Source: a virus (lineage: Duplodnaviria; Caudoviricetes). From it: a stretch of DNA of 61,997 nucleotides. The translations under genes and the position numbers were made by a program. Positions 9,685 to 36,689 of the stretch are shown one piece after another. Location: positions 1-61,997 of the IMG/VR virus record IMGVR_UViG_3300035661_000067; one strand, given 5' to 3'. The notes under the pieces are model-generated. The model did no database searches, was not told the origin of the DNA, and was given only the letters and a program-made list of their open reading frames with translations. Numbering within the stretch: position 1 is the first letter of the stretch; each line of letters starts with the position of its first letter.

Positions 9685-12600
9685 TTAGTCCATGATCTGA
9701 GGCGAAAGCCCCGCACGAATTTCAGCATCTAGCCCGGGGATGAGTTCCGCCCCGCCCTGGTTGTTCGCGTGATGCTTCGCCCGCAGCTTCGCGGACGCCA
9801 CAATCCCCTCGCTCGTGATCGGGTAGGAGGGGTGCGCGGCGTTGAAGGCGTCCACCTTGGCCCGAATTTCCGGGGTAATGGCGGCATGGCTCAGGACCGC
9901 CGTGGCGAGTTCCTTCACGATGGCGCTCTTCTCGTCCTGGATCTCCTGCTGCTTGTTGTAGGCCAGGCTGTTCAGTTCGTTCTGCTCCGCGATTTCGGCC
10001 GGCGTGAAGCCCAGGGCCTGCACGATGACCTGCGGGGTGGTCACGGTATCGACCAGAGGATCGCCGTTCTTGGTCGTGGCGCCCTCCATCGCATAGCGGG
10101 CGGCCTTCATCACGTTCCGGGCGGCGACGGGAAGCATCTTCTCGATGCCGCGCTCGTAGTCTCCGTTGCTGATGTCCTGCGCGCCCATCAGCATGTTCTC
10201 GACAAGCGTCGGGGCTGCGCCGACCGACTGCGCGAGCCACTGCTGATACAGGGCCTCACCCTCTGCCGGGCGGCTGTCGTCCCTGAACCATAGGTCGGGC
10301 ATGCCGATGCGGCTGGACAGGCTCAGCCCGGTAACGGCCTGCGGGATGCCATAGAACACGGCGGCCCCCATCTTCTCGCCAAAGACCGAAACCACGTCGC
10401 TCTTGAAGTGATCCTTGACCTCAGATTGGGGTGCGCCGGTCAGAAGGCCCCAGATCATGCAGGCTGCGCCAAACATCCAGACGCCAGAGATACCGGCATG
10501 CAGCATCAACGAAGCGGAAATGCCAAAGAAGGTGCGGCGAGCCTCCTTCCGGGCCTCCGGGCTTTCGCCCCGCGTCATCTGGTGCAGATCCCGGGCCAGG
10601 CGCCACAGCATGTTAATCTGGAAATTTTTCATCGCAGTGACCACGCGCGCCACATTCCCTTGAGTGAGGCGCGGGCGGGCATCATTTTGGTAGTCGAAGT
10701 GCGTCTTCCAAGTCGCTGACATTGCAGCATTAACCGCTGCATCATGATTGCCGCGCACGGTCGGGCCGCCGTTTGCGCCGACCGCAGGGGCTGCGTTGAT
10801 CCGGGCCATACGGTAGGCGGCGAGGAAGGTGATTTCCCGATTCATCCGCTCGGTGTGGTGCAGCATTAAGGAGGCCGCAGCCATGATTTTGCTGCGCCAA
10901 TCCCGGAACTCAGTGCCGTGCGCTTCGATGCCGGCCAGGTCATGGGCGCGGCTCTTGTCGATCAGGCCGCTGGCATAGGCGAACTCCATCGCGGTCTTCT
11001 CGTCGTCTGTCAGGCGCGAAGAGTTGACGGCATGCCCCTTGCCCCGGGTGAAGTCGAGCGATGCCCGCGCGATTTGGGCTGAAGCCTGACGCATGTTCGC
11101 CCCCGGCATGGAGCCAAGGATCGGGATGCCGACAATCGTGGTCTGGCTGATATTCACGATGGCGGTCCCGGGCGAGAAGGCCATGAAGTAGAGGAACACC
11201 GCGCTCGTCGCCAACTGGCTCAGGGCCGAACCCTTGGGCGCCATGGTGCCCTGGTGGCGGCGCATCATTTCCTGCACGATCAGCCCGTTGCGGGTCGGCT
11301 CGCTGCTATTCTTGGCCTCGCGCTCGGCTTCGACAAGCGCATCCTGCAGGTCGAGGGCATAGGACAGCTTCGCAAGCTGGTGCGAACCATGGAAGGCGGC
11401 CTTGCCAAAGGCGCGGAAGGCATCCGACGAGAATCCCGCCGTAGCGTTCCGGTGCAGCCGGTTGCGGCGGATCGACAGTTCCGGCAGGGTTTCAAGCCAC
11501 CGCTGCCAGATCGCATCCATCACCACCTTGGGCGTGTCCACTCCGGCGAGGATCTGCTCGATGTCCGAGACGAAGGTCGGATCGACCATGCCGCGGATCT
11601 CGCTCTCGCCGATCACGCCGGTCTGCGGCTTGATGCCCGTCTCCGCCGCCGTCGCGTTGGCAAATTTGTCCCGCGCCCAGACGCTCTCGAACATATTGAA
11701 GGCCGTGACCTTGCCTTGGGCATTCCGAGTGGTGACGAAGAACTTGCCGAAGCGGGTCAGGGGGAAATAGGGCTTCTCTACCCGGTTGCTCTCGAACATC
11801 TTCCGCAGTGCAAAGGCGCGGGCGCGGGCGCCGTCGCCGTGGTTGCGGCGGGCCTTGTCCAGCCGGGCATTGGCCCGGTCCATGGCCTGGGCGCGCTCGC
11901 CGCCGATCAGGCCGTCATCCTGGATGCGGCGCATTTCATCGGCATGCGCCCGCTCGGCAGACCGAAGGCTGATGTTCATAGCCTTGGCGATGTTGGCGAT
12001 GATCGCCCGCTCGTAAGCCTGGGACATGGCGACATATTCATCGCGGACCTTGTTGAACATATGCTTGAAGGCCCCGGGAAGAGCCCGGTATTTCGGCACA
12101 AGGGCATCATACCGGGCTTTCGCCGCCCGGTCGGCCTGAACGCGCTCGGTCGCCGCCGCCATTTGGCCCGGGGTGCCGGTCTGGTTCTGAACCCGGGCAT
12201 AATCCTCCGGCGATGCCTTCGGCTCATAGGGCTGGCTTGGATCTTGCCCGGCGATGGTCGCCTCGTGCATCAGGTCCATCAGCTTGACGTTGGCGTTCTT
12301 GTTCTGGGACATGATGTAGCGCCAGCGCCGCGCCACCTCATCGGTGCGGGTCCACCACTCCGACCGCAGCTTGTCCATCTTGTCTTTCAGCTTTTGGTAG
12401 TTCTCAGCCGAAGGCATCTTCCGGCCCAACTCGGTGAAGAGCGCCCGGCCCGGTACTGCGGACAGGAGCGTGGAACTGCCCAGAGACATCGCCTGTGTGA
12501 GCAGTTTCGAGAGCATGGTGCGCTCGTATTCCTGCGTGATCGGCCGCCGCATCCGCATCGCCGATGCGACAGATTCCTCGCTGAGGAACCCATAGCCAAA

Positions 12601-15600
12601 GACCTGCTTCTCGCCCTTGACCGCGCGCTCCGCCAGAGAGCCATCGAACAGCTTCTCGAAGATCATGGCTTCATTGATATAGCCGCGGCCCCGCAGCACG
12701 TTGATGATGCCATGAATGATGTTCGTGAACTTGTGGTAGGCGCGGCTCAGCGGCCCGCCCGGGCTGTCCTTGCGGCCGGTAAAGGCCATGTAGCGGTCGG
12801 CGATGACCTCTTCGACCTGCCAGGCATAGGGCAGTCCGTCATATGCCTTCTTGACCCATGCCATGGTTGCCACGTCCATCCGGGCCGCAGATACCAGCGC
12901 CCGCCACTCTTCGGCGGTGAATGCCCCATACTGCGCGCCGTTCCAGATGGTCTGGTCGCGCGCCCAATGCAGCAACTCATGGCGCAGGACTGCCAGCGCC
13001 CCGTGCTTTTGGCCCCATGAGGTCCAGATTTTCCGCTCGGCCCCATAGAACATGCCGTAAATCTCATCACCGGCTTCGGTAATCCAGTGCGGTGCGACAT
13101 TCAGGCGAAGTGCGGCGGCCCCCACGCGCTTCAACTCGGCCAGAAGACGGGCGCGGAGATTGACCTCTTCGGCCTTGGTCATGGGCAACTCGCCCGGAAT
13201 CTCGGCCTCAATAAGCGGGTCGTTTTCTTTGAAGTCGATCCCGCGCTCGGAGAAGTGGTGCGCGCCCCCTTCGCCTTTGCGCGCCTTCGTGCCGGGAGGA
13301 ACGGCCCCGGTGATGGTCCGGGCCTCGTCCTTGTGGGCGCGCGATTCAAAGTTGACGCCGCCGATCGACTGGATCAGCCGCAGAAATTCCTCGAACTTGT
13401 CGGGGTAGATGATCTTCGCCTCGTAGGTCGGCCTCCCAGACCGGCTGTTGAAGTCGCCCACCAGGCTCGTGATCTGCTTGTTCGTCGCATAGGGGCGCCC
13501 GCCCTGCGTGTTCAGGATCACGCTGTAGCGGTTGTTCCGGGCGCCCCAAGAGGACATCGAGTGCGTGATCGTGATGACGGAATCGCTCGTCACCACCATG
13601 GTCTGGACTGGCTTTCCGTCCTTGCCATCCAGGTTCAGGAACGAGATCACCTGTGGGATGGTGCTGAACTGGACCGGCATGTCCCGAAGGGCGGCCTCGG
13701 TATCGAAAGACTTCGGCATGAGGATGCCATCGGACACGGTGCCATCCATGCGGGTGAAGCGCATGATCTGGCCCTTCTCGAAGGCTTTGAAGCCCGCGAC
13801 GAGGTTTCCAGTCAGGATAGTCCGATCCTCGCGCGAAACGGAGGATTGGTTTGCAAAGGCCGCGATGATCGCATGCGGGGAGACGGTCGAAGGCTCGGGC
13901 TGGTAGGCTACATCCTCGGTTTTCCCGGCGATGAGCCGCGACACCGGAACCTCAAACTCCCGCATCGAATCCGCGACGGCTAGCCGCAGGGTCATCTTAG
14001 ACTGTTGGAAGGCGTTACCCTCGGCCCGGCTCATGTCGATGCCCAGCGAGATCGCCGGGATGCGGGTCGTCTTTCCATTACCCTCGTCGCGGATCAGGAA
14101 CGCGCTGGCGCCAGGCTTCCAGGTCAGAGCAAGGCGTTCCTGGTCTTTGAGGATCGAGTGCGCCTCGGCGAGCCGGTCTTCCGCCTTCTTGATGCCAGCA
14201 TTGGCGTCCCGCTTCTGCGCGTCCGTCTTTGCCACCGCGAGGCGGCCTTGCCACATTGCCAGAGAAGCGTTCGCCGTGGCTGTGGCAGCAGGAAACCCGG
14301 CCCGAATGTCGGTCATCTGCTCCAGCGCCCACATCTCGGGCTTCTTCCCGTCGAGGATCTTGGCGATCCGATCCTTGAGTTCCGCCTCGGTGTAGGGCTT
14401 GGCGAGAACGTTCGCTTTGACAATTTCGCTCACGGCCTCGCGCTGGAAGGGCGAGGTGCCGACCGAAGGCGACAGGATGGTCTTCGAGAGGGTTTCAGCT
14501 TCAAGGTTCAGGGTCTTGGCCTCAAGCGTGTTTGTGCCGAGGCGGTCCATTTCCGCGATGATCGCGGTATAGGCGATGTCGAAGTCCTCATAGATTTTCC
14601 GGGCCACGGCATCAGCGACCACAGCGAGGCGACCAGTCAGCCGCGAGGCAAGGCCGGGCTCAGGCTTCTTCCCGTGCGCGAAACCAAGTTCCAGCCCCTG
14701 GTCCACATTCTCGGCGAGCCACTGGTTGACCACGATGTCGCCATAGCGGTTCAGGAAGTCCTTCACGTTCTTCATGGTGACGGCGGAGTCCTTGGCCGCC
14801 GTGGTGTTGGCATTGAGGGATGCCATCTTCCGCATCAGTTGCGCCACCACGCGCTGCTCGATGGCGAGGTCGGACGCCCCGATGGAATAGCGCGGAAGGT
14901 GGATCTGGCCCGTCCGGTGGATGCGGCCGAGCATCTGCATAAACACGTCGATGTTGGCGTCTGGCTGCAGCACCCTCATGTAGCGCGGCTTTCCGTCATT
15001 CCGGGGAGTCGCCGTGGCATGCAGGGAGAACCCAGTCGAGCCCGACGAGTTGATGATGAGCGCATCAAGGGCGCCAGAGTTGTAGCCCGCCATCGCCTTC
15101 GCCTTGAGGGCTTGGCTGTTGGGCATATTTTTCAGCTTGCCGTCATGGATCATCGAGCCGCGCCCGGTGATCTCGCCGACCTTCATGCCCGCCGCTTCCA
15201 GCCCGGCCTTGAGTTTGTCGATCGGGGATGCCGACATGCTGCCCGTGGCGGCGGCCCGGATGGTCCGCTCTGCGTCTTTCAGCGCCCGCAGCGCAGCCTG
15301 CCCGCCATGAGCGACAACCTCGGCGTCGGTGATGTAGTGGTAGGTCACAACCTCCGTCACCTTGTCCTTGAAGCCGATACGGCGCAGGCGCTGCAGGTAG
15401 CGGAGGATGATGTCGTTGAAGGTGATGTTGATCGCATCGCCCGCGCTCAGGCCCAGGTCTTCAGCATACTCGGAAATGATTGAGTCGTTGGTATTCGCCA
15501 GGGCAATGATCGGCTTCTCGCCGTTCTTCCACGCCTCGATCGCATCTTGGATCGCCGCATCAGACTTTGCCGCCAGAAGCACCTGACCCACGATGTTGTG

Positions 15601-18600
15601 GATCATCGAAGAGAAGGTCTTGGAGGTGGCGGACTGCGAGCCTACTGCGCCGCCCTGCCCAACCGCGCCGTGACCGCCCTTCTGGAGGTTCTTGATGTAG
15701 GCAGTCCGCACGTCCTGCATATGCTCTTCATCAGCCATGAAGACTGCCCGCACCGCGCCCAGCGCAGCATGCGTTTCGGCGCTGTTGGTCTTGAGCGTCC
15801 GGGAGTCGATCTTGACGCCGGCATAGGACCGCTCGCGGCGGATATACTGCCCGGCCTCCACCAGAAGGTTTGCGGAGATCTGCTGCAGTGGAACCCCGCC
15901 CTCGCTCAGAAGCCCGGCGAGGTCGCCCGGCACAAGGCTCATATCGGTCTTGAAGTAGAGCGACAGCACGTCAGGGTTCTTGGCAAAGGTCGCCGAGGAA
16001 TAGAGGGTGCCGTGCTTCGACGTCGCCAGCATTTCCCGGAGGATGCGCCCGCGGCTCTTCTTGGTGATGCCGGTTTCCTTGTTGGTCGTCTCGCCGTCGC
16101 CGCCCGCCTCGTGCGCCTCATCCATGATGAACATGGAGTTCTCGGCCAGCCCCATCACCGCCTCTTGGCGCAAGGTCGTGCCGTCACCACCCTCTTGAAG
16201 CTGGCTATAGGTGGTGAATAGGACGGTTTTGCCTTGCGGAAGGCCGAGGCCATCCCGCATATTCTGCATCGCCTTGGCGAGTGCGGGCTTCCCAAGGCTT
16301 TCGACCTTGGGGCTATTCGGGTCGTCCGGGTCCACCCGGAGGATGTTCTTGCCGGTCAGGTCGGTATTGGTGGCGAGGATTTCTGGGATGGAATCGCCCT
16401 CGCCGATGTCCGTCAGGTCGCGGATCATGTCGAGATAGAGCCCGGGGGTCTTGGTAACGAAGATCGGCGTGATGCCGTTCTTGCGCGCATAGCGGATCAT
16501 CCCGGCCACGACGCGGCCCTTCCCGACGCCAGTCTGGTCGCCGATGATGAAGCCCTTGCCGTCCTTCACATTGTCGATCGCCATCGCCAGGGCGTCTATT
16601 TGCTCCGCAGAGAAGCGGCCCTTGCCATCCGGCGCCCCGTTGCCGGTGAGTTCGGCCTCGGAATAGCCCAATTCTTTGGCAACAAAGGTGTCGATCTTGC
16701 CATATTTCTGCTCGATCCGGTCCAGCGCCCGGTTCATCGCATACTGCATATTGACCGGGATCAGCGTTCCGACCGCATAGGCGGCGCCGGAGCGCGGGGT
16801 ATATTGGACCTGGAAGTCCGTCTCCTGCTCGTTGTTCACGCGCTCAGAGGTGTCCCACACGATCTTGGCCGCACCGCTCGCCAGTTCCTGCGCCAGGCGC
16901 GTCAGCTGCCCCATCAGGCGCTGCAGCCCCTCGTTGCTCAGGCCAATGTCCTTGAGGGCCTGCACCAGAGCGCGCATGAGATCCTTGATGCTCGATGCCG
17001 CGTTGCCGAAATGCTTGAGCATCGCGAGGAATTGCGGCTTGGCCCGCTGATAGTCCTCCTCGTCAAACCCAAGGCCGGAGTTCAGCCGGGAGGGGTTGTT
17101 GAGCATGTTCACCAGCCCGGCAAGGCCATCGAGAAAGCCTGCGCCGGTTTCGGTGATGATGTTGCCCGCAGCGTCCCGGATCAGCGGCTTTTGCGCCGGA
17201 TCTTTCGGGGGCTCGTTCGGCTTGTCTTTCAGCTTGTCCTTGGGCGGCTTTTTGTCCTTGGGCTTGTTGGCCTTTTCTTCCTGCTCCGCAACCCAGGCCC
17301 CAGCTTCCTCCAGCAGGGTCGCATTGGAATTGGCGTGATAGCTGGAAGCATCGACCGAGGCGAACATGGCCCAAGGTATGCCTGCCGGGTAAACCCCCAG
17401 CCGAACGGACCCGGGCTGCACGAAAACGCCAGCCTCCACACCCTTCGGCAGCGCGGCGCGCAGAGCTGCCAGCGCGCCGCGCTGTGCCTCGATCAGCTTG
17501 AATCTCTCGTAGCGATTGGCCTTTGCGGCGAGGTCCTTGGGGTCTTGGTCGAGAAGATCCTGATTTCCGCCTAGAGCCTTGGCGGCTTTCTTGGCGCCCG
17601 CATCATCCTTGGAGGTGAACGGGTTGTCGTCCGGCGCAGCCAGGGCATCCGGGGGCGGCGGCTCGTTCGGAGGCGCACCAGCGCCACCGGCCTCCGGCTC
17701 GATGCCGAGGTCAGAGAAGATGTCGTTGAGAAGGTCTTGGGCGTCCTGATCGCTCAGGGCCCCAGAGCCAGGAGGAAGCTGTCCAGCGTCTCCGCCTGCA
17801 GGGCGTCCACCCGTTCCTGCGGATCTGCTTGTGCTGCCAGAGCCTCCGGCTTGATCGCTGCCGGAACCGTCCGGTTGCCCGACATTTCCCGGAGCCTGTC
17901 CAGGCTGTGCCACAGGGTTTCCCCCAGGCCCTGCAGTTCCGCCTCCTTGACCAGCGGAATCCCCAAATCCCGGAGCCGACTGATCGCCTCCTGCGGGTCG
18001 GCCTTCTCCACCAGCCGGTCGATTCGGCTTTCCAGCGCCGCCCTGTGCCGCGCCGGGGTCATCGGCGTTGTCGGGTTGACCAGCACTGTTCCCACTCCCG
18101 CCAAGCTGCCTGCGGGTGTCCAGGCTACGAGGTCCATTCAATCCTCCTTCAAGGTCGGTCCAACTCGTGATGATCGGCGGCGCCTCCGACATCGGAAGCA
18201 CCAGTTTCGATTCGCCGCGGCCCTCGATCACTATCACATCGACGGGCCATTGCGCGCCTTGCCGTGCATAGAGCGATCCAGCGACAGTAAAGTGCCCTAC
18301 AACGTTGTATTGGTCGTAAATCGTGTTCCAAAAGCGCCGCTGCCTGGCCTGGGAATAGGCTTGCGCCCGGTCGCTTCCGGTCAAGGTCGGGCTCTGGCCG
18401 CCGACGATCAGCACTGCGCGCCCATCCTTTTTCATGGACTGCAGCGCCCGCAGGGCGATGGCGTGGTCGATCTCCGTGGTCTGGCCGCCGCCCGCTAGCC
18501 CGGGGGCGTTGAATCGGGTTTCATTCCCCGCATCATCCATCACCTTGCCGAAGGGCGGGTTAGCGATGACGACATCCACAGAGGCCGGGCCCTGATGCTC

Positions 18601-21600
18601 CATCGCATCGCCGACGCTGATCTTGGTCATAAAGCTGCCCAGCGCATAGCTAGCGCGGGCCGCCCGGGCGGGGTCCAGTTCGTTCGCGGTCGTCTTTGCC
18701 GGGTCCGCGCCGATCAAGAGCATGCCGTTGCCCACGGTCGGCTCATAGACGGTTGTGTCCTCAGTGATGCCGGCCAGTTGCGAGGCCAGATAGGCCAGTG
18801 GCGCCGGGGTCGAATATGCCTGATTCCGCAGGCTCGTGGAGGTGCGTTGGGCCAGAAGCGGCTGGCGCGCATAGAGATCCACCAGCGCGGTATAGGTTTC
18901 GGCCGGGCTCTTGCCTTGGCTGATGATGTGGCGCGCAGTGATGACCACGGCGGCCTCAAGCGCCTCTTCCACCAGCTTGTATTCCTCGTCGGCGAGGGGC
19001 CGATCCAGAGCCTCTGCCGCCACCTTCCGGGCGACGAGGATGTTGTGGAAACCGTCACCATCGACGAGGCGCTTGGAGAAGGTGTCGATCAGCGTCTGGA
19101 CCATCTTCGGGACGGTCGGGTTGGCATCCGCAGGCTTGGGTGCAACTGCCTCCAGGAGGGCCTGCTCGGCCTCCATTTGCGCGATCTTCCACTTGATGTA
19201 GGGGTAGGTCACTTTCTTCGGGAAAGCAGCCGTCCGGGTGTTATAGCTGTTCCCCTTCGGCCCCTTGAACGTGACGATGGCCTTGTTGTTGCCGTCCGGG
19301 AGCAGCCGCCAGCCCTCGTCCAGCTTGTCGTGGATGAACTCCTGCGGGGTCTGCATCTTCCCATCGACACGGATGCCATAGAGCAGGGCGCCATCAAACT
19401 CATAAGACATCGGGCCATAGATCGCAGTGAAGGCGTCATAATCGGCCTTTAGGGCGGCCTTCTTGTCTTCGGCGGCCCGTGCTTCCTCCATGACCCGCTT
19501 GGTATCGGCCTCAAATTTGGCCTGATCCAGCGCAGCCTGGGGCGACATCAGATAGGCATCGGTTTCCCGCTTCCCATCGGCAATGTCGTCTTCCATGACC
19601 TCGGGCTTGCCGCCAGCGGTTGAGACGCCAACCATCATCGGCAGCATCGCGCCACGGTCCTCGATCGACACGATCTTCCGCTCGCCCTTGGGCGAGGCCC
19701 AGGTATCGCCGATCTTCATGCCGGTTAGGGTTTCGGTGCGCTTGGGCATGTCCGGCGCGGCCTTACCGTCCGGGTTCAGGAGTTTGCCGACCTCGCGCAT
19801 GACCTCGCGCGCCGCGGCGATGGTGCCGCTCTTCTGCAGTTCCTTGGCCGCGGGGTAGGCGCCGGACGCGGTGTCGATGTTGACGAGATAGTCATTCGAC
19901 ATCCCATAGGTCTGCAGGGCGAGCGTGAAGATCGCCTCGAAGGCCCGCGCCGTCTCTTCGATGGTCGTGCCCCAATAGGCGACCTTCCGATATGTATCGA
20001 AGGCGATATTGCGCTGGTGCCACGGTCCCTGTTTCAGGGTCAGGGCGAAGTGCTGCAGCGCCTTCGCCAGCCCATCGCCCAGGCCCTTGTTGTTGGTCTC
20101 GCCCCGGTCGGAGGCAAAGTCGGTGCGCTGCTTATCCTTGGGCTTGGCCGCCGCCGATACGCCGCCTTTGCTGGCCGCCTCGCGCGCCAGATAGTTGTCG
20201 AGAGCATGCACCCACTCATGGGCCAGCGAGCCCGAGCCGTTGCCCGCCGTGAGGTTGATGACGACCTCAAGCTGCTCATAGTGGGCCGCCGCCGCGCCCC
20301 TGCCACCCCGGCCCCGCGATGCGAAGCCGATTCCGAGGGTCTTGCCATCAACAGGAAGAACGGCAATCGCCTGCGAGGGGATGCCCAGCATGCCGGCCAG
20401 ATCCATGAAGGCATCATAGGCCCGGTTCAGGTCCAACTGCCGCTGGTCGTTGTTCCGGGATGCCCCAAACTCAACGCGCAGACCGAAGGCTTTCTCAAAG
20501 TCAGCGGTCGAGACATTACCCTCGCGGCGCTTCATGCCGCTGCGCTCGCGGTTCTCCAGCCGGTGTTCGCGCGGCCCGACACGGAGCGCCCGCACCTTGT
20601 TCCGAAGTTCCTCTTCGTTGGCGGTGATGTAGTCCCGGGCGGCCTGATAGGTTTCAAACCCGCCGACGATAATCGGGGAGTTCTCGTCGTTCGAAGACCA
20701 GATGCCATAGGTCTTTGTGGTGGAAATGCCCTTGGCGTCCCTCTCGAAGGTTTCAGACTTCACTGAGAGGCGGATCTCGCGCTCCTTTGGCACGGTCGTA
20801 TCGCCGCCTTCGCCTTCGGGCTTCATCGCCTCATCGAGCGCCTGTTGGTCAATGATCTTCCGCACCTCAGCGAGGGCACGGGCCTGCACCTCGGCCATCG
20901 TGTCGATGTAGAGCCCGCGCCCGTTGCTGTAGTGCGGCCCATTGGCGAGGAAATAGGTGTCCGGTTCGCGGGCGCGGACCTTGGTTTTCCCGTCATCGCT
21001 GGGAACGAGGACATAAGACTTCGTGATCGGGTCCATCTTATACTGGATCACCCGATTCAGCTGGTAGGTCGCAAGCAACTCCTGCTCTTGCGGGGTTGCG
21101 CCATCGCGGACCAGGCCAAAGCTGAGAAGGCCGGAGCCAGTGTTGTCCTCGTAGTCCTTGATATGATTGCGGATGTCGGCATCGAGATCGGGGCCATCCC
21201 AGACTTGCCGGGTGCCATCCAAAAGATCCTTCGCCAGCTTCCGCGCGGCGCTGACATGGTTGACCCACCGAGCCAGCTTGTATTTGTTCGTCCGGCCCTG
21301 CGGTTTTAGCGGGATCTGGCGACGGATCGAGAGGATCACCGCGATGGTGTCATGTATGGCCCCGCCTTGGGCCAGCGCCGCTGCATCAATCGGCGGGAAG
21401 GTCTTGCCCAGCGGGTTCGTGGCGATGTCGAGATCTGCCCCGATCGCCCGGACGAACTGCCCGAAGAGGTGCTTGCGAGCGCCCTCGATCTTGCCGCCGA
21501 AGTCATCAATCTTCTCCGGGGGCTCTTCGGGCTTCGGGTTCGCGTCTTGCGGCGCATCAACCGCGGGTGGGTCGATGATTACGGGCGGTTTTTCAGGCTC

Positions 21601-24600
21601 GCCGCCTTCTGGCGCAACTGCCGGACCTCCGCTGGGTTTTTCTCGGTTTCCGCCATCGCCCGAAGTGTTTCCGCCATCGCCTTGCGGTGCAGAGGGGCCG
21701 CCTGTGGGCTTGTCGAAGAGCCCGCCTTGTCCTTTTGTGCCATCTTGGGCTCCTTTTGCCATTTTCAGCACATCGCGCGGGTTCGCGGTATGCCCGAACA
21801 TATCGGCCTCGGCCTGGGTCTTGCCCATTTCCTGAACGTAGAAGGCCAGCGCCGATCCGATGCGCTCGCGGCTGGCAGGCTTGGTCCATTTCACGACATC
21901 GTTGAAGAGCAGGGATAGGAAGTCCTTGGCCTCATCCGACACGGTGCCGCCCGCGGCGAACATATCGGTCTGGTTAACGAAATCCGTGATGGGCCGGCCA
22001 GCGCGCCGCGCCCGGTCCACAAGCTGCACGGCCTCCATCAGGGCCGGGGTCATATCGGCATGGGGCGAGATCACCCCTTCCGCTGCCTGCGCCCGCATCT
22101 TGGCCCACTCGCCCGCAACATCGGTCAGCGCGCCGCCGATGGCCTTGATGTTGGTGTCCGATGCCTCCATCAGCGTCTTGATGAGGTCCGGGCTTCCATA
22201 GGCTTTTGCCAGCAGGGCCGCTTGGATGCGGAGAAGGCCAGCCTGGCTGATCGAGCCATCCGAGCCGATCATCCCGATCGCATCGTTCTCGCCGATCACG
22301 TCCTTGATGATCTGCCGCACGAAGTCCCGGTTGCCCGCGGAATCGAGATCGCCGCCACGATAGAGGGCGAGGTGCGCGGCCTGGATCTGCCCGGCATCCG
22401 CCATCGCGGTTTCCGAGACGGTCATGCCAAGGTTCGTGCGCTCGTTGTATTCCTTGGTCGCCGCGATGCGGGTCGCCGTGTCCATTTCCGTTGTGCGGAG
22501 GCGGATCAGCACCGGGTTCTTCATCGACTTGTGGACCGGATAGCCCTTGGCCTTGAGCCATGCGCGATAGGCTTCGGCGCTCTTGCCGTTCTCGACATAG
22601 GCGCGGCGTAGGGCCATCATGCGCCCGTTGCCGCTTTCGACCACGCCATCCTTGGAAACGATCGGGGCGCCGGGGCCAGCTTCGGGGCCTTCGCCCATGA
22701 ACTCTGGGTTCAGGTTCGTTGCCATGCGCTGCACCTGGAGCATGGCAGAGGGGTGCGATCGGTCGCGCGGCTGTAGTTCGGACGGATAGGCTTTGTTGAC
22801 CCGGCCATCATCGTCGTTCGAGATCACCAGATCATCGAGCGACACCACGCCATAATCGACCTTGACCACGCGCCCCTGCGGCGTCGTCACCTTGTCGTGG
22901 CTGTGAAGGTTGAAGTGCTGGATGCCCGGCTTCTTGGCCGCATCGCCCTCGGTGTAGTTGCTGGAAATCGGCTTCTTCCATGCCGGGGTGTGCGGCAGCA
23001 GGGCGCGCAACTCCGCAACTTCCATGGTCTTGATACCGCCGACACGGGCCTCGCCCTTGCCATCGCTGAACCCGGCCTCATAGACCTTGAGTGCTTCGCT
23101 GGCGCTGTCGAACCCCATCAGGATCTTGTGTTCATCGAACTTGCCGGTCGCCAGATCGTTCTGATCGACAACGACAACCAGCTTCGATTCGGGGTTGGGG
23201 CCGACATAGACATCGACGTGGTCTTTGTCTTTGCCAACGGTGCCCTTGATGTAGCCATAGTCGGCAGCGAGCGTGACGCTCCATTCCTTGCCGTCCGGCG
23301 AGGTGCCCTTCCGGGTGCCGGCCTTCTCGGTTTCGATGCTGATGTCCAGCCCGTGAACCTTGATATGCTTCATCTGGTAGTTGCCCGCCTCGGCCTGTGC
23401 CGGGGTCGGGTTTGGGTTCGCGTGATTGTCGTCGGCGGCAGGCTTCTCGCCCATGCGCTCGCGCGCCTGGGGGTCGTTTGCCATGAAGAAGGCATAGCTG
23501 AACCCAAAAGGCGTGGTGGAGCGCGCCTCTTTGCCCAGAGGATCGGTGCCGCGCAGCTTGGACTGCATCTTGGACCCTTCAACCGGGTCCACATTGGCGG
23601 TCGGCAGATCCGTCTGGAACATGCCGTAAAGCTGGGTGCGCTTGGTGTAGGGGTCGCCGAAGTTGTGCGGGTGGAAGCGCACGGTCGGGGCAGGCATGCC
23701 CGCCTTTTCCTCGATGCGGCCGACAGGGTTTTCAAGGACATGGAAGCCGGTCGGGTTCGATTCCTCGATGATCCGGCGTGTCTCGTTCACCAGCATGATG
23801 TTGTATTCCAGAGGCGACTTCGCCCCGGATGCCAGCGCAGCCTCGCCGAAGACCTTCACCAGGGCCTCGGGGGTCTGGATGTCGTGCAGCGGCTCCCACC
23901 AGCGCGCGCCCGCGCCGGAGAAGGTGGTGCAGGGTGTGGCCGCCAGAACACCATAGACCTCGTAGCCTTCGGCCCGGCGCTCCGCAATTTGGTCGTTGAT
24001 CCACTGATCGAGCCCGATCTTCGAGCCGATCTTGATGTCGTGCTGGATCACCTGATACCCAGCGTCCCGCCACGGCTGCGACCACTGGCCGCTGTAGTCG
24101 AACAGGCTGATGATGATCTTGCCGGCGTTCTTGCCGGTCTTCCCGATGTCCTTGGCGACCTGCTTCCATGCCGCCAGTTTGGCGTCGGCCTCGGCCTGCG
24201 GGATATAGCCATCCTTGGCCGCCTTGGCCTCGATGCTGACCGTTCCCTTGCGTTCCGGGAACACGTCCTTGGGGTCCATGTGCGGCACATCGGCCTCGGC
24301 CATGGGCTCGCCTTTGGGCGCACCGTTCACCGTGTCGGTGTTGACGCCGTTCGACTCGAAGTTCTGGAGGAAGTCCATGGCATCGGCGACCGCAGAGCCA
24401 TCGCTGTCAAACTCGCCCGTGCCCTCGTCAAACTTGGGCTCCGGCAGATCCCCGGTCTTCGCCGCGCGGGCCTCTTCGATCAGGCGCTTGGCGATGTCTT
24501 CGGCTTCCCGGATCAGGGTCGCCTCTTGGTTCCACTCCTTGGTGGTCTTGTGCTGTCCCTGGGCATCGAAGTTGTCGATCGCGTGGCCCTTGGAGCGCAT

Positions 24601-28115: not shown

Positions 28116-30005
28116 TCACTGTCCAGTGCCGTAAACCCACGAGGGGTCGGCGGGCTGCGTTGTGCTTCCCCCGCCTTCATAGTTTGCCGCGCCCTGGTCA
28201 GCGGTGCGAAGGAAATCCGCCGCCTGCGAGGCTTGTTCTTCGGGCGGAAGATCGGCGAAGCCGGGATGCCCGAGGGGATCGGCCGTGAAGATCTTCATCA
28301 CGTTCAGGATGTCGTTGCGGCTCTTGTTTGTGCCCTGCAGCTTCATCTGTGCGATCTGCACTGAGGTTTCCAGCTTTTGAGAGGCCATCACTGCAGCCCG
28401 GGTAGAGACCTGCTGCTTCTGTGATTCCTCGAATAGCTTGTCGGGCGGCAGGGCCAGGAGCCCGGTCTGAACCATGTCGTTCATCCCGTTGTAGTGCGTC
28501 ATGGTCGTCTTGCCGTCCTTGCCGACCACGGCGATGTCGAACCCGGTGACGATGCCATTCTCGTCTCGCGTCACCTTGCTCGCAGCCTTGTCCACAGTAA
28601 CACCGACATCCATGCCGTTGATATATGTGGTAAAGTTCGTGAGAAGCCCATCGGCATCCCCAATCGCAAGGCTGTGAAGCGCCTTGGACCAATCCGTCAT
28701 GGAATCCTGCGCCTTGCTGCCCGTAGCCCAATCCTTGAGGGCCTGCGCCCTGTCGATCTCGCCCCTCGACATATAGTAGTCGATCAACTTCGGAACCCCG
28801 ATGTCTCGGTAGTTTTCCATGGTCGATTTGACGGCCTTGGTTTCCTGCTCGGGGGTGCGCGAGAGGGGGCTGTTGAAGCTGATCGCGCTCCGCCCAGCCT
28901 TGGGTGCGGGCGGCGTCATGGCTGCGGCGATAGCGGGCGCGGTCGTGTCGGGCGGAGGCGCAGCGGCGGCGGCTGCCTGATTGCCACCCATCGGGGGCGC
29001 GGCGGGCTGCTGCTGGGGCGCGGCCGCCGATGTAGATGTGCCAGCACTGAACCCCGTCAAGGCTGCAGCGTTGGCGCGAGGATCTGGCGGGGTCTTCGGG
29101 TTGACAATGGTCTGGCCCGCCGTGGCGTTCGGATCGGATGGCGGGACCGTAGGGCCGCCAGGTGTGGCATAGCCACCGGGCGGGGGCGGGGCGTTCAGCC
29201 GAGCCTGCTCTTCGGCATCGGAAGGCCGCGCGCCGGGCAGGCTGCGGCCCTGCGTCCCGACCGAGTTCTGAATCGCAGCACTGACAGCCCCGGGCGGCAC
29301 CAGTGCGCGCTCTTCCGGGGTCATGGCATTCCACTCTTCGATGGTCTGTGGGATCTTCACGCCGGGGGGCGCCTGGGTCTGCGGCGTAGGTCCGGCCGGA
29401 GCCTGGGCGACACCATTGCCTCCCACGGAGCGATTGATCGCCGCGCTGATCGCTTCGGGCGGGACCGTGGCCCGCTGCTCAGGGGTCATGGCGTTCCACT
29501 GCTCGACGGTCAGTGTGGAATAGTCATTGGGTTCGGGAGAGGTAGGGCCGCCCACCGGGCTAATAGCGCCCGGAAGAGATCGCTGCGTGGTTGGAGCCCC
29601 TGCAGGCGCACCGGGGTCCACCCCATCGCTCATAGAGGGAACACTGGAGCCGAAGGATAGGCTGGGCGCGCTGGGGTCGCCCATCATGCCGGGGATGTCG
29701 GTGTTCACGCCGGACTGCGGCGGAGACGCCTCGCTGGCCGCGCCGCCCTCCTGAGAGGCTTTCCATGCCGCCGCCTTAGCGTCCCGATCATCCTGCGCTT
29801 CTTTCAGCACACGGTCTTGCTCGGCCCGAAGGCGCTGGCGCTCTTCGACGGTATATGTCCGGTCGCCGCGCGCCCAATCGCGGTTCTCGTTGAGCCACTT
29901 CCGGTCTTCCGCATCGAGGGCAATCTGCCGCTTGCGGTCATCCCATGCGTTGCGCTGGTTCATCCCCCCAACGAAGCCGTCCACAAAGCTGCCAAGTCCG
30001 GCCAT
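28116..30005 (-). CDS. Internal virion/ejection protein
   Basis: 629 aa; MAGLGSFVDGFVGG start, coiled coil, Pro/Ala-rich middle; position among podovirus core genes. Confidence 0.7.
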   Translation of the reverse strand: MAGLGSFVDGFVGGMNQRNAWDDRKRQIALDAEDRKWLNENRDWARGDRTYTVEERQRLRAEQDRVLKEAQDDRDAKAAAWKASQEGGAASEASPPQSGVNTDIPGMMGDPSAPSLSFGSSVPSMSDGVDPGAPAGAPTTQRSLPGAISPVGGPTSPEPNDYSTLTVEQWNAMTPEQRATVPPEAISAAINRSVGGNGVAQAPAGPTPQTQAPPGVKIPQTIEEWNAMTPEERALVPPGAVSAAIQNSVGTQGRSLPGARPSDAEEQARLNAPPPPGGYATPGGPTVPPSDPNATAGQTIVNPKTPPDPRANAAALTGFSAGTSTSAAAPQQQPAAPPMGGNQAAAAAAPPPDTTAPAIAAAMTPPAPKAGRSAISFNSPLSRTPEQETKAVKSTMENYRDIGVPKLIDYYMSRGEIDRAQALKDWATGSKAQDSMTDWSKALHSLAIGDADGLLTNFTTYINGMDVGVTVDKAASKVTRDENGIVTGFDIAVVGKDGKTTMTHYNGMNDMVQTGLLALPPDKLFEESQKQQVSTRAAVMASQKLETSVQIAQMKLQGTNKSRNDILNVMKIFTADPLGHPGFADLPPEEQASQAADFLRTADQGAANYEGGGSTTQPADPSWVYGTGQ

Positions 30006-30014
30006 GATCGGCTC

Positions 30015-30851
30015 CTATTGCGTGAGGGAGGCGAGAACGCCCCCAAGAGGTGAGTTTTTGAAGCCATCTTGCAGGTTGTTCATCATGGTTTGCCCAAAAG
30101 ACAGAGGCGCAGTGTCCACAGATCTTTCCACAGGCGCGGCTGGGGTCGAATATCGGGCCAAGCTGTCGGCATAGATCTTCGATCGCCCGCCTTGGTTCGA
30201 GTTCATGCTCGTCCATGTGGACTGCAGCGTGTTCATGATCTCTGGGGTCATCCCACCCACCTGCAGATCCGCATCGAGATTGCGCCCAGTGCGCTTGCCA
30301 TAGTTCGAGGCCGCGAGTTGCCACGCATACTTGTCCTGATTTTCAGGCGTGAACGGCGTGTCGGCCCCGGCAGTGTCTTTCCAGGTGGACCATGTGAACT
30401 GATACCGGCCCGCCGCCGAAGACTTCCCGGCTGGGCCAGGCTCATAGATCCGCGGGTGAGTGCCGTTCAGGTCGAACTTTGCGCCACCTTGCGGAGTATA
30501 GCGCACGTCATAGGCCCCACCCGGCGATTCCCCATACGAGATCGCATTCAGTGCCGCGCGCTGATAGGGCGCAAGGGTGGTGTTCACAGGATCTGTAGTC
30601 GGGCCGTCAGGCTGGTAAGAGCCGCCGCCGTTGCTGCTTGCTGCGGGAGCATAGCCTGCAGCCGGGCCTGCAGCACCGCTGTTCTCGCCGCTGCCATCAA
30701 CAGGCATGCCCTGATAGGCGCCCTCGCGCATAGCATCGCGCCGCGCCTGATCTTCGGCGGCGATGTCCTGCTTCTGGCGCAGATAGTCCTTCTGCTTCGT
30801 GTAGCTGGTGGAGAAGCTGGAGAGGAAATCGCCGGTCGGAGATCCGCTCAT
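30015..30851 (-). CDS. Virion-associated lysozyme (lambda-R/GH104-like) ejection protein
   Basis: ALNAISYGES...YD, SSAAGRYQF, FTPENQD. Confidence 0.8.
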   Translation of the reverse strand: MSGSPTGDFLSSFSTSYTKQKDYLRQKQDIAAEDQARRDAMREGAYQGMPVDGSGENSGAAGPAAGYAPAASSNGGGSYQPDGPTTDPVNTTLAPYQRAALNAISYGESPGGAYDVRYTPQGGAKFDLNGTHPRIYEPGPAGKSSAAGRYQFTWSTWKDTAGADTPFTPENQDKYAWQLAASNYGKRTGRNLDADLQVGGMTPEIMNTLQSTWTSMNSNQGGRSKIYADSLARYSTPAAPVERSVDTAPLSFGQTMMNNLQDGFKNSPLGGVLASLTQ

Positions 30852-32275
30852 GCGGCCCTCGCCATCTGCGGAAGGGACCGCTTCGAAGTCGGCATATGAT
30901 TGCCGCGCGCCTCGACCATACGGTTTTGTCTGGCATCCATCGACTGGCTGACGGTCGGGTGTGTGGTTGCGCGGTCGGTCGCATTGGCCTTGGATTGCGC
31001 CATCGCCACCCGGTCTTGCCGGGCCTGCATCGAAGATCCGCCCGGGGATTTGCGGTCATCAGCTTCTGGTCGGCCAGCCGCCACATCGGCGCGCTCTTGG
31101 GCCTTGACCTTGAGCGTTTCGCCGGCCTCGTGGCTCTTGGATTCCTTCTCGCCCGCCTCACCCTTGGATTGCGCCAGAGCCACGCGGTCTTGCCGGGCCT
31201 GCATACTCTTGCCGCCCGGCGCATTTCGGTCATCGGCTTCTGGTCGGCCGGCCGCCACATCAGCGTGCTCCCGGGCCTTGACCTTGAGCGTTTCACCGGC
31301 CTCGTGGCTTTTGGATTCCTTCTCGCCCGCCTCGCCCTTGGCACCCGGAATCGACCGCTTGAGGCCATCGACCTCCTTGGAGAGTTCCTGCACTGCGCCC
31401 ATGACCGTGCCGATTGCGTCGATCACATTGATCGTGCGCCCGTCGCCGAACCCGGTCTGTGCCTTGAAGTCTTGCGCCATGGTGCCGACATGGCGCCCGC
31501 CGTCGCCCGCGCCGTCTTTGTAGGTCCAGTCTTTGACTGGCATGCTGTCCACCGCATCAAGCAGGGACCGGCCCGGCTTCTTGATGTCCTTCTTGGTGTT
31601 TTTGTCCGAGCCAAAGGCCAGACCCACGATGGAGCCGACGCCGCTGTAGAGCGCGGAACTGGCGTCGGCCTTCGCCTGATACCCCTGCATTTGCTGGGAA
31701 TACTGCTGGTTCAGGCTGTTGGCTTGCCCGGTATAGCCTGCCTGCGCGCCAGAATAGCCCGACGAAGCGGCTTGGTTTGATGTCTGGATGTCCGATGTCG
31801 CCTGCATCGGAAGCCCACTGACCATATTGATCGCGTTAGCCTGCATCGCATCGGCGGTCGCATGGGTCTGGGCGCGCGAGGCATTGGCAGCACCGGCCAC
31901 TTGGAGGCCACCCATGATCGAAGCTGACTTGTCAGCCGCCATGGCTTTGCCGGAGTTCGGGTTGACGCCCATGCCCTGCATCTGGCGATTCATCGCGCCA
32001 GTCTGCGCGTCGATCGAGGTTTGGGCCTGAGCACTCGCCTGGTTGGCCTTCAGCGCGAGGTTGTCCGCGCTGTCGTAATTGGCAGCGTCCTTGATGTATT
32101 GGTCCTGCATTGGGACCGTGACACTCTCGTATCGTGCCCGATCATCGGCGGCCCACTGGTTGGTGATGCCAGCCTGCTGCTGCATATACGCGAGATAGTC
32201 CTGCCCGGTCTGGGCCTGCATCATGGCCGCCTGGCCCATGGCGGGATCTGGCGACGGAACGCTGGGTTTACCCAT
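30848..32275 (-). CDS. Ejection/pilot protein with S74 intramolecular-chaperone domain and C-terminal repeats
   Basis: Q/A/M-rich N-terminus; SDKNTKKDI...WTYK...HVGTMAQD...GAVQEL. Confidence 0.75.
   Translation of the reverse strand: MGKPSVPSPDPAMGQAAMMQAQTGQDYLAYMQQQAGITNQWAADDRARYESVTVPMQDQYIKDAANYDSADNLALKANQASAQAQTSIDAQTGAMNRQMQGMGVNPNSGKAMAADKSASIMGGLQVAGAANASRAQTHATADAMQANAINMVSGLPMQATSDIQTSNQAASSGYSGAQAGYTGQANSLNQQYSQQMQGYQAKADASSALYSGVGSIVGLAFGSDKNTKKDIKKPGRSLLDAVDSMPVKDWTYKDGAGDGGRHVGTMAQDFKAQTGFGDGRTINVIDAIGTVMGAVQELSKEVDGLKRSIPGAKGEAGEKESKSHEAGETLKVKAREHADVAAGRPEADDRNAPGGKSMQARQDRVALAQSKGEAGEKESKSHEAGETLKVKAQERADVAAGRPEADDRKSPGGSSMQARQDRVAMAQSKANATDRATTHPTVSQSMDARQNRMVEARGNHMPTSKRSLPQMARAA
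30988..31341. repeat. 174-bp (58-aa) tandem duplication
   Basis: Copies begin at 30988 and 31162 (CCTTGGATTGCGCC). Confidence 0.9.
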
Positions 32276-34098: not shown

Positions 34099-35607
34099 TC
34101 AGATCCTCAAGCTGGAATAGGCCATGACCTGGCCGGGTGAAACACCGCCGCCGCCGCCACCCGGCACGGCCCAGGTGCCATCGGCGCGCAGGTAGAGGAC
34201 GGTGCCCCCGCCCGAGGCTGGCACGAGGCCCGCAAGGGCACTGGTGAAGGCGGGTAGCATGGCATTGACCTGATCGACGGTAAGGGCTGCGGGAACGGCA
34301 GAACCGCCCGTGTTGTTGCCTATCAGGGTCAGGGTGGGCAGGTTCGCCATGTGCGAGAGGGCAACGGCACCCGATGTGATGGTGGTGGCAAAGGTGCCCG
34401 TGCCGCTGCCGGTGATGGAGCCGGTCAGGGTGACGGTCTGGTCGCCCGAGTTTGTGCCGGTCAGGCTGAGGTCGGTCTTGACCTGCGCGATGGTGCGCCC
34501 GGTCCATGCGCCCCCCTTCACCTGCATGAAGTTGTCGTTGGTGAGGGCAAGCGCCTGGATCGCGGTTAGGCTAGCGCCGAGGGGCTGATAGGCTGCCGCA
34601 AGGCCGCCAATATCGGCGGTCGTGATGGCAAGGCTGGTCTTGAACGCGGCGAAGGTGGCTTCGGCGATCACCTTCCCGCTGGCGCCGGAAAACACGGCCG
34701 GGTTGCCGCTGGTGACGGCGGATGGGCCGACAACAGCGCCGTCGATGTTGGTCTGTGTGACGTTCCACTGTGCGCCGACCGTGGCTTGGTCGCCCGAGGC
34801 AGTGCTGTCGGTCTGACACATGATGGTATCGCCAATTTCCACCACGACACCGGACGCTCCGCCGATCCGGCCCGCCGATGTCACCTTGTAAAGGTGGCCG
34901 GTATCCGCTGCGGGATAGTTCGGGTTGGCGGCGCAGGCGATCCCGCCCTTGTAAACCATGGCGTCCGCGGCGGCGATGATCGCGCCCACGGCTGCGGTAA
35001 CAAAGGCGGTCGAGGCGATCTGCGTCGTGTTGGTGCTTGGCGCTGCCGTGGGCGCGGCTGGGGTGCCGGTGAAAGTCGGCGATGCGAGGTTGGCCTTGAG
35101 CGCATCCGCCGTGTCCACATAGGCAGTGGTGGCGATCTGCGTCGTGTTGGTTCCCGGCGCGGCGGTCGGGGCCGCAGGAACGCCCGTAAAGGTCGGCCCC
35201 GCGATGTTGGCCTTGAGGTTGTCGGCGGTCGTCACGAAAGCGGTCGTAGCAAGCTGGGTCGTGTTCGTGCTGGGTGCCGCTGTGGGCGCGGCAGGGGTGC
35301 CGAGGAAAGTGGGGCTGGTGATAGGCGCCCGCAGGGTGATCTGCGCCTGCAACTGCCCGAAGGCGGCGAGGATCGTGTCGGTAGCAGCAATGACGGCGCT
35401 GGATGCGAGCGAAAGTCCAGTTAGGACCGTGGTCAGGACCGAGCTTCCCCCGCCCCCGCCAGCGGTGGCGAGGGTATTGTAGGCCGTGACGCCATCGCCC
35501 ACCTTGAAGATCTTGTTGGTCTTGTCGAAACAGATTTGACCATCGCCAGGGATAGGGTTCACGGAGGCCCAATTTGCTGCTGTATCTCGCCGAACGCGGA
35601 GCATCAT
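34099..35607 (-). CDS. Tail fibre protein with Mtd-like N-terminal motif
   Basis: RRDTAANWASVNPI..GQI...FKVGDGVTAYN; SPTFTGTPAAPTA repeats. Confidence 0.85.
   Translation of the reverse strand: MMLRVRRDTAANWASVNPIPGDGQICFDKTNKIFKVGDGVTAYNTLATAGGGGGSSVLTTVLTGLSLASSAVIAATDTILAAFGQLQAQITLRAPITSPTFLGTPAAPTAAPSTNTTQLATTAFVTTADNLKANIAGPTFTGVPAAPTAAPGTNTTQIATTAYVDTADALKANLASPTFTGTPAAPTAAPSTNTTQIASTAFVTAAVGAIIAAADAMVYKGGIACAANPNYPAADTGHLYKVTSAGRIGGASGVVVEIGDTIMCQTDSTASGDQATVGAQWNVTQTNIDGAVVGPSAVTSGNPAVFSGASGKVIAEATFAAFKTSLAITTADIGGLAAAYQPLGASLTAIQALALTNDNFMQVKGGAWTGRTIAQVKTDLSLTGTNSGDQTVTLTGSITGSGTGTFATTITSGAVALSHMANLPTLTLIGNNTGGSAVPAALTVDQVNAMLPAFTSALAGLVPASGGGTVLYLRADGTWAVPGGGGGGVSPGQVMAYSSLRI
34996..35330. 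repeat. Three ~120-bp fibre repeats
   Basis: PTF(L/T)G.PAAPTAAP.TNTTQ(L/I)A.TA.V three times. Confidence 0.85.
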
Positions 35608-36401: not shown

Positions 36402-36689
36402 TCATGGGATAATCATGATCCCGGGCCGGCCGAGGTCCGGGCTGGGGTATGTGGGAGCAAAGGCGGTGTCGAACAGGGCTTGGATCGCGGCCGTCTCTGA
36501 AATCAGGAGCGTGACCTGGGAGTTGAGCGCGCTGATGCGCTTGATCTCCTTCCCGATGGTGGCCTGAACCTCTTGCAGATTCTTCAAGCGGAGGGCGGCA
36601 AGGAGCGGGTCGCCACGGTCGCCGTTCAGCCGGGCAACCTTTTCTTCAATCACCCGCATCGCGGCTTCGTTCAGGAGGGGCGTGGTCAT
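36402..36689 (-). CDS. Hypothetical tail-region coiled-coil protein
   Basis: ATGA coupling at 36689; EKVARLNGDRG. Confidence 0.65.
   Translation of the reverse strand: MTTPLLNEAAMRVIEEKVARLNGDRGDPLLAALRLKNLQEVQATIGKEIKRISALNSQVTLLISETAAIQALFDTAFAPTYPSPDLGRPGIMIIP

Follow-up and report, generated by a model that had tools for sequence, protein, structure and literature searches.

We examined a 61,997-nucleotide (nt) stretch of DNA from a tailed phage (IMG/VR virus record IMGVR_UViG_3300035661_000067, positions 1 to 61,997), which is called the window hereafter and represents a genome of ~62 kb with 63% GC, and focused on a 127-codon open reading frame (ORF) that lies out of frame inside an ~18-kb giant gene, at the junction between a methyltransferase domain and a helicase domain of the encoded protein. 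An earlier note, made from the letters of the window alone, had singled out this ORF as the best-supported nested gene, preceded by a perfect Shine-Dalgarno sequence. Based on sequence comparison and predicted structure, from which its translation is inferred, we consider it a true gene that codes for a protein, nested in the +1 frame of the giant gene and predicted to be translated, with a probability of about 0.85. All coordinates below are window positions, and the nested ORF and the giant gene are both on the minus strand. The features of the locus are as follows.

9685 to 27588, minus strand: the host gene, known from its ORF and translation, encoding a large polyvalent protein of 5967 amino acids (aa); it is the last large gene of the late/virion module and provides the main frame.

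18139 to 19221, minus strand: N6-adenine methyltransferase-like domain (giant-protein residues 2790-3150), with an NPPF motif at 18550-18561 in the translation.

18143 to 18149, minus strand: Shine-Dalgarno sequence AAGGAGG, 5 nt (ATTGA) upstream of the nested ATG and read as E-G-G in the main frame.

18138 to 18140, minus strand: TGA in the nested frame directly 5' of the nested ATG, which closes the +1 frame upstream.

17754 to 18137, minus strand: the nested gene, 127 aa plus the stop codon TGA (17756-17754), with its ATG at 18137-18135, in frame +1 of the giant gene.

17734 to 18138, minus strand: the linker, that is, the main-frame reading of the overlap (giant-protein residues 3151-3285), of low complexity and rich in Gly, Pro, Ala, Ser and Asp, with GC of 0.80/0.71/0.50 at codon positions 1/2/3.

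17704 to 17736, minus strand: acidic motif DLLNDIFSDLG, the first conserved main-frame element past the overlap.

14704 to 16620, minus strand: helicase core of the strawberry-notch/SNF2 type, with the Pfam matches AAA_34 at 15781-16620 (E 1.3e-18) and Helicase_C_4 at 14704-15186 (E 2e-15).

The nested ORF is offset by 9451 nt from the start of the giant ORF, and 9451 mod 3 = 1 assigned it to frame +1, so that a complete ORF lies within the coding sequence of another gene in a different frame and 384 bases are read in both frames. It starts one codon past the end of the methyltransferase domain and ends 8 codons ahead of the next conserved main-frame motif, DLLNDIFSDLG. The coordinates, the ribosome-binding site and the place after the NPPF domain were as the earlier note had given them. 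GC content at codon positions 1/2/3 was 0.74/0.49/0.80 in the nested frame and 0.65/0.47/0.79 over the giant gene as a whole; read in the main frame, the same stretch gave 0.80/0.73/0.49. Among the 23 same-strand alternative-frame ORFs of at least 60 aa in the giant gene, this was the only one that combined gene-like GC by codon position with a Shine-Dalgarno sequence; the other 22 had a shadow signature, and those inspected by eye were Arg/Pro/Ser-rich. We nevertheless take the comparison of related loci, and not the GC-position signal, as the decisive proof that sequence can offer.

Related loci were fetched with an alignment of the methyltransferase C terminus (A2), since the alignment of the small family (A1) had no conserved stretch of 7-10 columns, and this yielded 153 loci on 80 viral contigs and 73 genome contigs. 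The record titles assign the genome contigs to Alphaproteobacteria, many Cyanobacteria and several other phyla, although the binning of phage contigs into metagenome-assembled genomes (MAGs) may err. A hidden Markov model (HMM) of the nested family matched 56 of the 153 loci at E < 1e-3, in every case in the main+1 frame and starting at the methyltransferase domain end; the only extra match was in L100, a frameshifted copy, and the reverse-strand frames were unmatched. Four iterations of the model brought the number of +1 ORFs recognised to 120 of 146. Downstream sequence of at least 450 nt was available for 147 loci, and in these the median open stretch at the overlap site was 135 codons in frame +1 versus 22 in frame +2. 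The earlier note had reckoned that homologues keeping the linker and not the open +1 frame would speak against a gene; instead, an ATG-started +1 ORF crossed the overlap site in 146 of the 147 loci, and in 137 of them its ATG fell within -32 to +14 nt of the domain end (62 at -8, 48 at -5).

A Shine-Dalgarno core (at least 5 nt, at a spacing of 3-12 nt) preceded 92 of these 137 ATGs (67%), compared with 2.9% of 11,548 control ATGs from the same loci and with the 31% expected from the main-frame peptide alone by synonymous resampling; the main-frame hexapeptides covering the site were of 94 different kinds. A stop codon in the nested frame occurred 0-8 codons before the ATG in 90 of the 137 loci, and in 145 of 152 loci no stop interrupted the main frame before the locus ended. 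These motifs and their conservation indicated that the nested gene has translation-initiation signals of its own. Loci of low GC (38-50%) also kept +1 ORFs, of 92-233 codons, which resampling gave in 0-46%. A plasmid of Acaryochloris marina S15 carries a 169-codon +1 ORF (HMM E 8e-19) and a Thalassospira plasmid a 139-codon ORF with a weak HMM match; the cultured Bacteroides phage BS-TP4 (L154; PQ571277.1, 45% GC) has, at the same junction, a 121-codon acidic +1 ORF without an HMM match, located ~25-388 nt past the methyltransferase domain end within a 5391-aa 'hypothetical protein'; this ORF resembles the family in character, and the phage is a possible laboratory system. Lysogens or contig hosts with an ORF at this place include Paracoccus onchidii Z330, Falsiroseomonas tokyonensis K-20 and Roseovarius nitratireducens, and Nodosilinea PCC 7104 is a further carrier. 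Annotated records that were examined, among which the PLSDB tables are incomplete, listed only the giant coding sequence over this region; standard annotation misses the nested gene, since gene callers do not allow one gene to lie within another.

We evaluated selection on the two frames separately. When 81 distinct nested ORFs were aligned by codon, differences between pairs in the nested frame followed the order position 3 > 1 > 2 in every identity bin, with values of 0.066/0.049/0.160 at positions 1/2/3 for pairs of 85-99.9% identity. A second comparison used 30 independent pairs of loci (each locus used once, 70-94% DNA identity) on an alignment of the main-frame protein, the bias of which, if any, is toward the main frame. 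Main-frame position 3 was the most variable in 30/30 pairs within the methyltransferase domain and in 30/30 downstream of the overlap, whereas inside the overlap main-frame position 1, which is position 3 of the nested frame, exceeded main-frame position 3 in 28 of the 30 pairs. Pooled variability at main-frame positions 1/2/3 was 0.105/0.064/0.315 in the domain, 0.282/0.189/0.186 in the overlap and 0.129/0.091/0.358 downstream, and the ratio of position 1 to position 3, which was 0.24-0.52 in the flanking bins, rose to 1.4-1.7 only in the three 40-codon bins (codons 0-120) that follow the domain end. Substitutions that were synonymous in the nested frame and nonsynonymous in the main frame numbered 944 in the overlap, versus 587 of the reverse kind; the corresponding numbers in the flanks were 6311 and 13483. 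The order of positions, the switch in 28 of 30 pairs and its confinement to the overlap indicated purifying selection on the embedded frame.

For the enclosing frame, the nested protein was held fixed and synonymous codons were drawn by each locus's own usage. On average, 4.9% of these trials left the main frame without a stop, compared with 110 of 110 non-redundant loci observed, and for the loci of 38-50% GC among them simulated openness was 0 in 500, indicating that the enclosing frame is maintained as well. The median hydrophobic fraction was 0.10 in the main-frame linkers versus 0.33 in the nested proteins, and 89% of linker residues were small, polar or charged. The periodicity of the nested frame and the openness of the main frame in all 110 loci therefore place both frames under selection: as judged from these comparisons, the nested frame is maintained as a protein sequence and the main frame at least as an open, hydrophobic-poor linker, the selection demonstrated on the latter being that it stays open. 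Together with the conservation across 147 loci, the purifying selection on the nested frame upheld the claim of the earlier note that this is a real nested gene, unlike the shadow ORFs elsewhere in the giant gene.

Homologues of the nested protein also exist in protein databases. With the 127-aa product as query, phmmer retrieved 30 matches at E <= 1e-3 from 1.84 billion representative proteins, the best at 2e-22 with 45% identity, and 26 of the 30 were 122-135 aa long and aligned end to end. The family shares the motifs IAWTP, GLGxV, PLT, ALxxRIDRLV and ETLEEFLxxLY, and Trp6, Pro8, Leu35 and Leu118 are near-invariant. Protein P0136 was 97.7% identical to the nested ORF of locus L111 and P0146 was 82% identical to that of L019; therefore, at least some database proteins are the same embedded ORF, called on sequence fragments. 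The contigs of seven database homologues were looked up, of which four were 980-4738 bp long and three, carrying longer forms, were 6,077, 11,022 and 87,562 bp. In P0137 (249 aa, on a 6-kb contig) the small domain runs in frame into DDFDAIFD..., which elsewhere is main-frame sequence of the giant protein; P0135 (203 aa, from a contig of 87.5 kb) is extended at its N terminus by 75 aa that include a DGLFDDIL motif, and P0140 (278 aa) also has an N-terminal extension. These three may reflect indels or alternative, possibly unfused, architectures.

When applied to 121 giant proteins (the window's own, its stored copy and 119 homologues), the nested-family HMM found no in-frame domain (best E 0.015), and nearly all of these proteins had a low-complexity linker of 120-140 aa after the methyltransferase domain. 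A tblastn comparison of the nested peptide with phage genomes, which the earlier note had put forward, returned no match in 50,697 phage records, and a search of viral contigs for related loci with the window segment or with the single small proteins P0122, P0137 and P0135 confirmed nothing.

AlphaFold2, given an alignment of 66 sequences (A3), modelled the nested protein as two short N-terminal strands and eight helices with high confidence (mean predicted local distance difference test score, pLDDT, 94.9; predicted template modelling score 0.87). The product is not charge-balanced, as the earlier note had described it, but acidic, with a net charge of -5 and an isoelectric point (pI) of 4.97, and acidity extends to the whole family (median pI 4.6, median net charge -8, 94% of members below pI 5.5). 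Among Pfam families the sole match was to DUF3618, at 20.2 bits versus a cut-off of 24.9, over 21 residues and in 1 of 66 members, so that the gathering threshold was not reached; PHROGs matched 0 of 66 members. Structure-based searches were similarly empty, with a best E of 0.27 for a sequence search of PDB, 3.1 for Foldseek against PDB and 1.3 for a fold search of BFVD, a best Z of 3.3 over 51 residues for VIA-align against 48,161 chains, and no usable match in the ESM Atlas. The nested protein is thus assignable to no known family, although an absent match is no proof of a new fold, and homology gives no functional lead.

These cumulative results indicated that the nested ORF is not a shadow ORF, and they suggest how the overlap may be read. 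Frame 0 would give a disordered, Gly/Pro/Ala-rich linker that joins the N6-methyltransferase part to the helicase part of one polypeptide, and frame +1 would give a small, acidic, mostly helical globular protein. Most likely, ribosomes would make the latter by initiating independently on the mRNA of the giant gene, at the AAGGAGG-N5-ATG of the nested gene. The conserved Shine-Dalgarno sequence, the conserved ATG and the nested-frame stop just upstream all point to such initiation; no sigma-70-like promoter or intrinsic terminator was found in 17400-18900. It is an ancient arrangement, which has been conserved in a clade of giant methyltransferase-helicase genes carried by phages, by prophages and by certain plasmids of Alphaproteobacteria, Cyanobacteria and other phyla.

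Several observations weigh against a translated nested gene. Two other Gly-rich linkers of the giant protein are also low in main-frame GC at third codon positions (GC3), and a hydrophobic-poor linker is intrinsically prone to an open +1 frame, the mean chance of which was 40% given the main-frame peptide; this estimate (test B, by synonymous resampling) is partly circular, because the ORFs had been defined as open, and was not used as evidence. Composition or openness alone is therefore insufficient to decide, and GC3 and codon usage, considered as proof of the nested gene, were dropped to a supporting observation, since the fall in GC3 was equal in other Gly-rich linkers. The nested protein evolves fast, as seen in the 587 overlap substitutions that change it and leave the main frame synonymous, against 944 of the opposite kind, and no result speaks for any particular function. 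The nested protein of the window itself was absent from ~15 billion predicted proteins, and the homologues looked up were mostly on short contigs, where a gene caller may favour the nested frame, so that their status as called genes is not independent proof. The iterated HMM missed 26 of the 146 +1 ORFs, which by eye read as ordinary helical acidic proteins with a similar C-terminal motif. In plasmid p1 of Leptolyngbya boryana IU 594 (L160), which has a close methyltransferase (HMM 128 bits), the +1 frame is broken and the main frame intact, and no nested ORF was found in distant relatives with 26-33% methyltransferase identity, namely plasmids of Xanthomonas, Yersinia, Pseudomonas and Acinetobacter and the Acinetobacter phage MD-2021a. 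The broken frame of L160 and these ORF-free relatives show that the nested gene is dispensable for methyltransferase-helicase proteins in general. In L100, a contig of a Paracoccaceae MAG, the nested ORF is split over two frames and the main frame stops 393 nt past the domain end; L160 and L100 are examples of loss or of sequencing indels.

The function of the product can be approached through its setting. The strict linkage of the nested gene to the methyltransferase-helicase junction suggests a partner of the surrounding DarB-like module, and we tentatively propose, at odds short of even, that the protein is co-expressed with this module as an assembly or packaging chaperone or as a regulator. 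The earlier note had named it a candidate regulator of the methyltransferase-helicase module, a role that is still conjecture. When the nested protein was modelled in complex with the methyltransferase domain plus the 41-aa motif past the linker, the score was 0.00, which, as controls were not run, is no evidence either way. A structured inner gene within a disordered outer frame suggests that the linker arose by fusion of two genes across a pre-existing small gene, and the two flanking genes would then have been joined by read-through across it. It is possible, if doubtful, that in a whole clade of these giant proteins the linker derives from read-through of the small gene in that gene's -1 frame, with the small gene left intact, and that the small protein, co-translated in cis, is a partner on which an injected anti-restriction module depends, be it as chaperone, as packaging adaptor or as activity switch.

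A real and independently translated gene could also encode a free-standing counter-defence factor, such as an acidic, DNA-mimic-like anti-restriction protein, with the DNA shared for economy or co-regulation. Ocr and ArdA are known examples of small acidic anti-restriction proteins, and the nested family has the pI and charge expected of the acidic surface of DNA mimics, although acidity alone is unspecific; it is equally compatible with a free counter-defence factor and with a partner of the module. No Ocr- or ArdA-type member appeared among the PDB sequence, PDB fold or BFVD matches, and the lack of likeness to solved or predicted viral structures is inconclusive rather than negative, since a missing match does not exclude a relationship. 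The host gene is, going by Iyer et al. (2017, PMC5512222), an assembly of counter-defence domains, which favours such a factor. On the other side, strict linkage to the junction in ~140 loci suggests functional coupling, although genetic hitch-hiking gives the same pattern. We consider a free-standing factor rather unlikely, but it is the leading alternative.

The peptide of the nested frame might instead be a part or isoform of the giant protein, produced by a +1 shift past the methyltransferase domain and a return shift of -1 ahead of the helicase part, or by internal initiation and a -1 shift that would give a fusion of the small domain to the helicase; in a third version, compensating indels would account for the open main frame. 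P0137, in which the small domain continues without a frame change into DDFDAIFD..., and the N-terminal extensions of P0135 and P0140 would fit such products. However, a main frame open in 110 of 110 loci, when 4.9% was expected, would be needless if ribosomes left it, and the nested-frame stop that lies 0-8 codons ahead of the ATG in 90 of 137 loci, and immediately ahead of it in the window, like the conserved ATG and Shine-Dalgarno sequence, points to initiation. A canonical -1 slippery heptamer (X XXY YYZ) was present in the last 45 nt of 0 of 137 nested ORFs, in a scan that covered neither non-canonical sites nor +1 shifts, and none of the 121 giant proteins carried the domain in frame. As to indels, the nested stretch was identical and indel-free in contigs assembled from four public DNA runs, which may be the source sample and therefore lend no independent support. 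We judge this explanation very improbable.

Still harder to sustain is the idea that the periodicity arises from a non-translational constraint, such as linker composition or mRNA structure. It is true that the linkers share a composition and that a few semi-conserved main-frame motifs could be made out by eye. Yet selection on composition predicts no conserved ATG, Shine-Dalgarno sequence or stop position, and it leaves unpredicted the position-specific hydrophobic pattern, the near-invariant residues and the confident AlphaFold2 fold; moreover, main-frame wobble positions were the least variable or tied (0.186) in the overlap, and a constraint on the linker protein would give the opposite. 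That the ORF is a chance shadow, open in +1 because +1 stops need a T at main-frame position 2, which linkers lack, with its ATG and Shine-Dalgarno sequence being accidents of main-frame E-G-G-L-N-G, would agree with the 40% openness on resampling and the partly open +1 frame of other low-GC3 linkers, but it has next to no chance against the 30 database homologues, the 120 of 146 loci recognised by the iterated HMM, the ATG position kept in 137 of 147 loci, the Shine-Dalgarno excess of 67% over 31%, the nested-frame periodicity in 28 of 30 pairs, the pLDDT of 94.9 and the long ORFs retained at 38-50% GC.

Embedded genes in another frame are already known in phages and bacteria, so that the kind is not new. 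In the spanin genes of phage lambda, Rz1 lies wholly within Rz, on the same strand in +1 with its own start, and both products are made. The nested gene described here shares this same-strand +1 arrangement and a start of its own, but Rz and Rz1 are two small partners in about the same function, whereas here a 127-aa gene occupies the interdomain linker of an 18-kb gene for 5967 aa, within the overlap the outer frame encodes a disordered passenger, and no known family or fold matches the product of the inner one. In Bacillus subtilis, comS is a small out-of-frame gene in the giant multidomain gene srfA(B) and is translated from the same mRNA. The likeness is that of a small protein gene out of frame in a giant multidomain gene, the nested translation being predicted in our case; in contrast, ComS is a 46-aa regulatory peptide of B. 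subtilis and its close relatives only, and the nested family has 90-230 aa, a predicted fold and a range across phyla and mobile elements at one domain junction. In overprinted genes of small viruses, such as B, K and E of phiX174, the novel frame usually encodes a disordered protein within an older structured one. As there, a long same-strand region is dual-coding with selection on both frames, but here the embedded frame is structured and conserved and the enclosing one disordered, a polarity suggesting that the enclosing frame is the newcomer in the overlap. With a genome of 62 kb, the pressure for compaction is weak.

The host gene belongs with the large polyvalent, P1 DarB-like proteins treated in PMC5512222, as it encodes LPD1, LPD5, LPD39, ddrB-ParB and InPase domains together with the N6-methyltransferase-like domain and the strawberry-notch helicase. 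The text of that article, supplements aside, does not contain 'overlapping', 'frameshift' or 'linker', uses 'nested' and 'embedded' of other things, and does not describe a second gene within the methyltransferase-helicase junction. Likewise, the literature, supplements aside, yielded no account of any gene lying within a methyltransferase-helicase gene of the polyvalent, DarB-like or strawberry-notch kind. As far as the literature was searched, then, the gene family, its constant place in the linker of a giant polyvalent protein and the polarity of the overlap are new.

The family, which has no Pfam or PHROG entry or fold match, recurs in phages, prophages and plasmids of several phyla (more than 100 related genes) and would add a component to DarB-like counter-defence modules. 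Its overlap of ~390 nt is old, with both frames maintained, and the disordered enclosing frame gives it an unusual polarity that bears on the evolutionary assembly of multidomain polyvalent proteins, the 'linkers' of which may be coding in another frame. If the fusion history is true, the linker would have arisen as a side effect of genes being fused across another gene, which inverts the classical course of overprinting, and other long low-complexity linkers in giant proteins of mobile elements may hide genes in the same way.

The giant protein itself had Pfam matches to InPase (2.2e-46), ddrB-ParB (6e-31), LPD39 (5.8e-50), LPD5, LPD1, AAA_34, Helicase_C_4 and ResIII, and so combines in one polypeptide the many unrelated counter-defence domains, LPD domains included, that characterise large polyvalent proteins; 450 homologues were found at E <= 0.001 among 1018 candidates scored. 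No Pfam methyltransferase model matched the window's giant protein at E < 0.01. Methyltransferase homologues aligned at 38-50% identity (alignment A4, 37 sequences), and their public records are annotated as 'N-6 DNA methylase' or 'strawberry notch'. Motifs like DLLNDIFSDLG (DDFDxIFDxALxExFG) were seen by eye 3' of the linker in many giant homologues; a regular expression for this acidic motif matched only 16 of 137 loci, the pattern being too narrow, and its conservation rests on the reading by eye.

The giant gene directly follows the virion genes on the same strand, which fits a protein that is packaged in the virion and injected. These genes, assigned by PHROG, are as follows.

48018 to 49682, minus strand: terminase.

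43916 to 46330, minus strand: portal.

41449 to 42543, minus strand: major head protein.

36686 to 38320, minus strand: internal virion protein.

34099 to 35607, minus strand: tail fibre.

28116 to 32275, minus strand: virion structural proteins.

Elsewhere in the giant gene, the Gly-rich linkers at 25462-25806 and 21580-21759 on the minus strand (residues 595-709 and 1944-2003) had main-frame GC3 of 0.56 and 0.48, and their +1 frame was partly open with protein-like codon usage (log-likelihood -0.32 and +0.14 per codon). A 123-aa +1 ORF (25856 to 25485) in one of them had intermediate GC of 0.63/0.58/0.77 and no Shine-Dalgarno sequence. Methyltransferase-helicase ('strawberry notch') homologues were also found on 238 plasmid records, 153 of them from Acinetobacter, and the plasmid examples inspected from Acinetobacter, Pseudomonas, Xanthomonas and Yersinia had different, shorter linkers.

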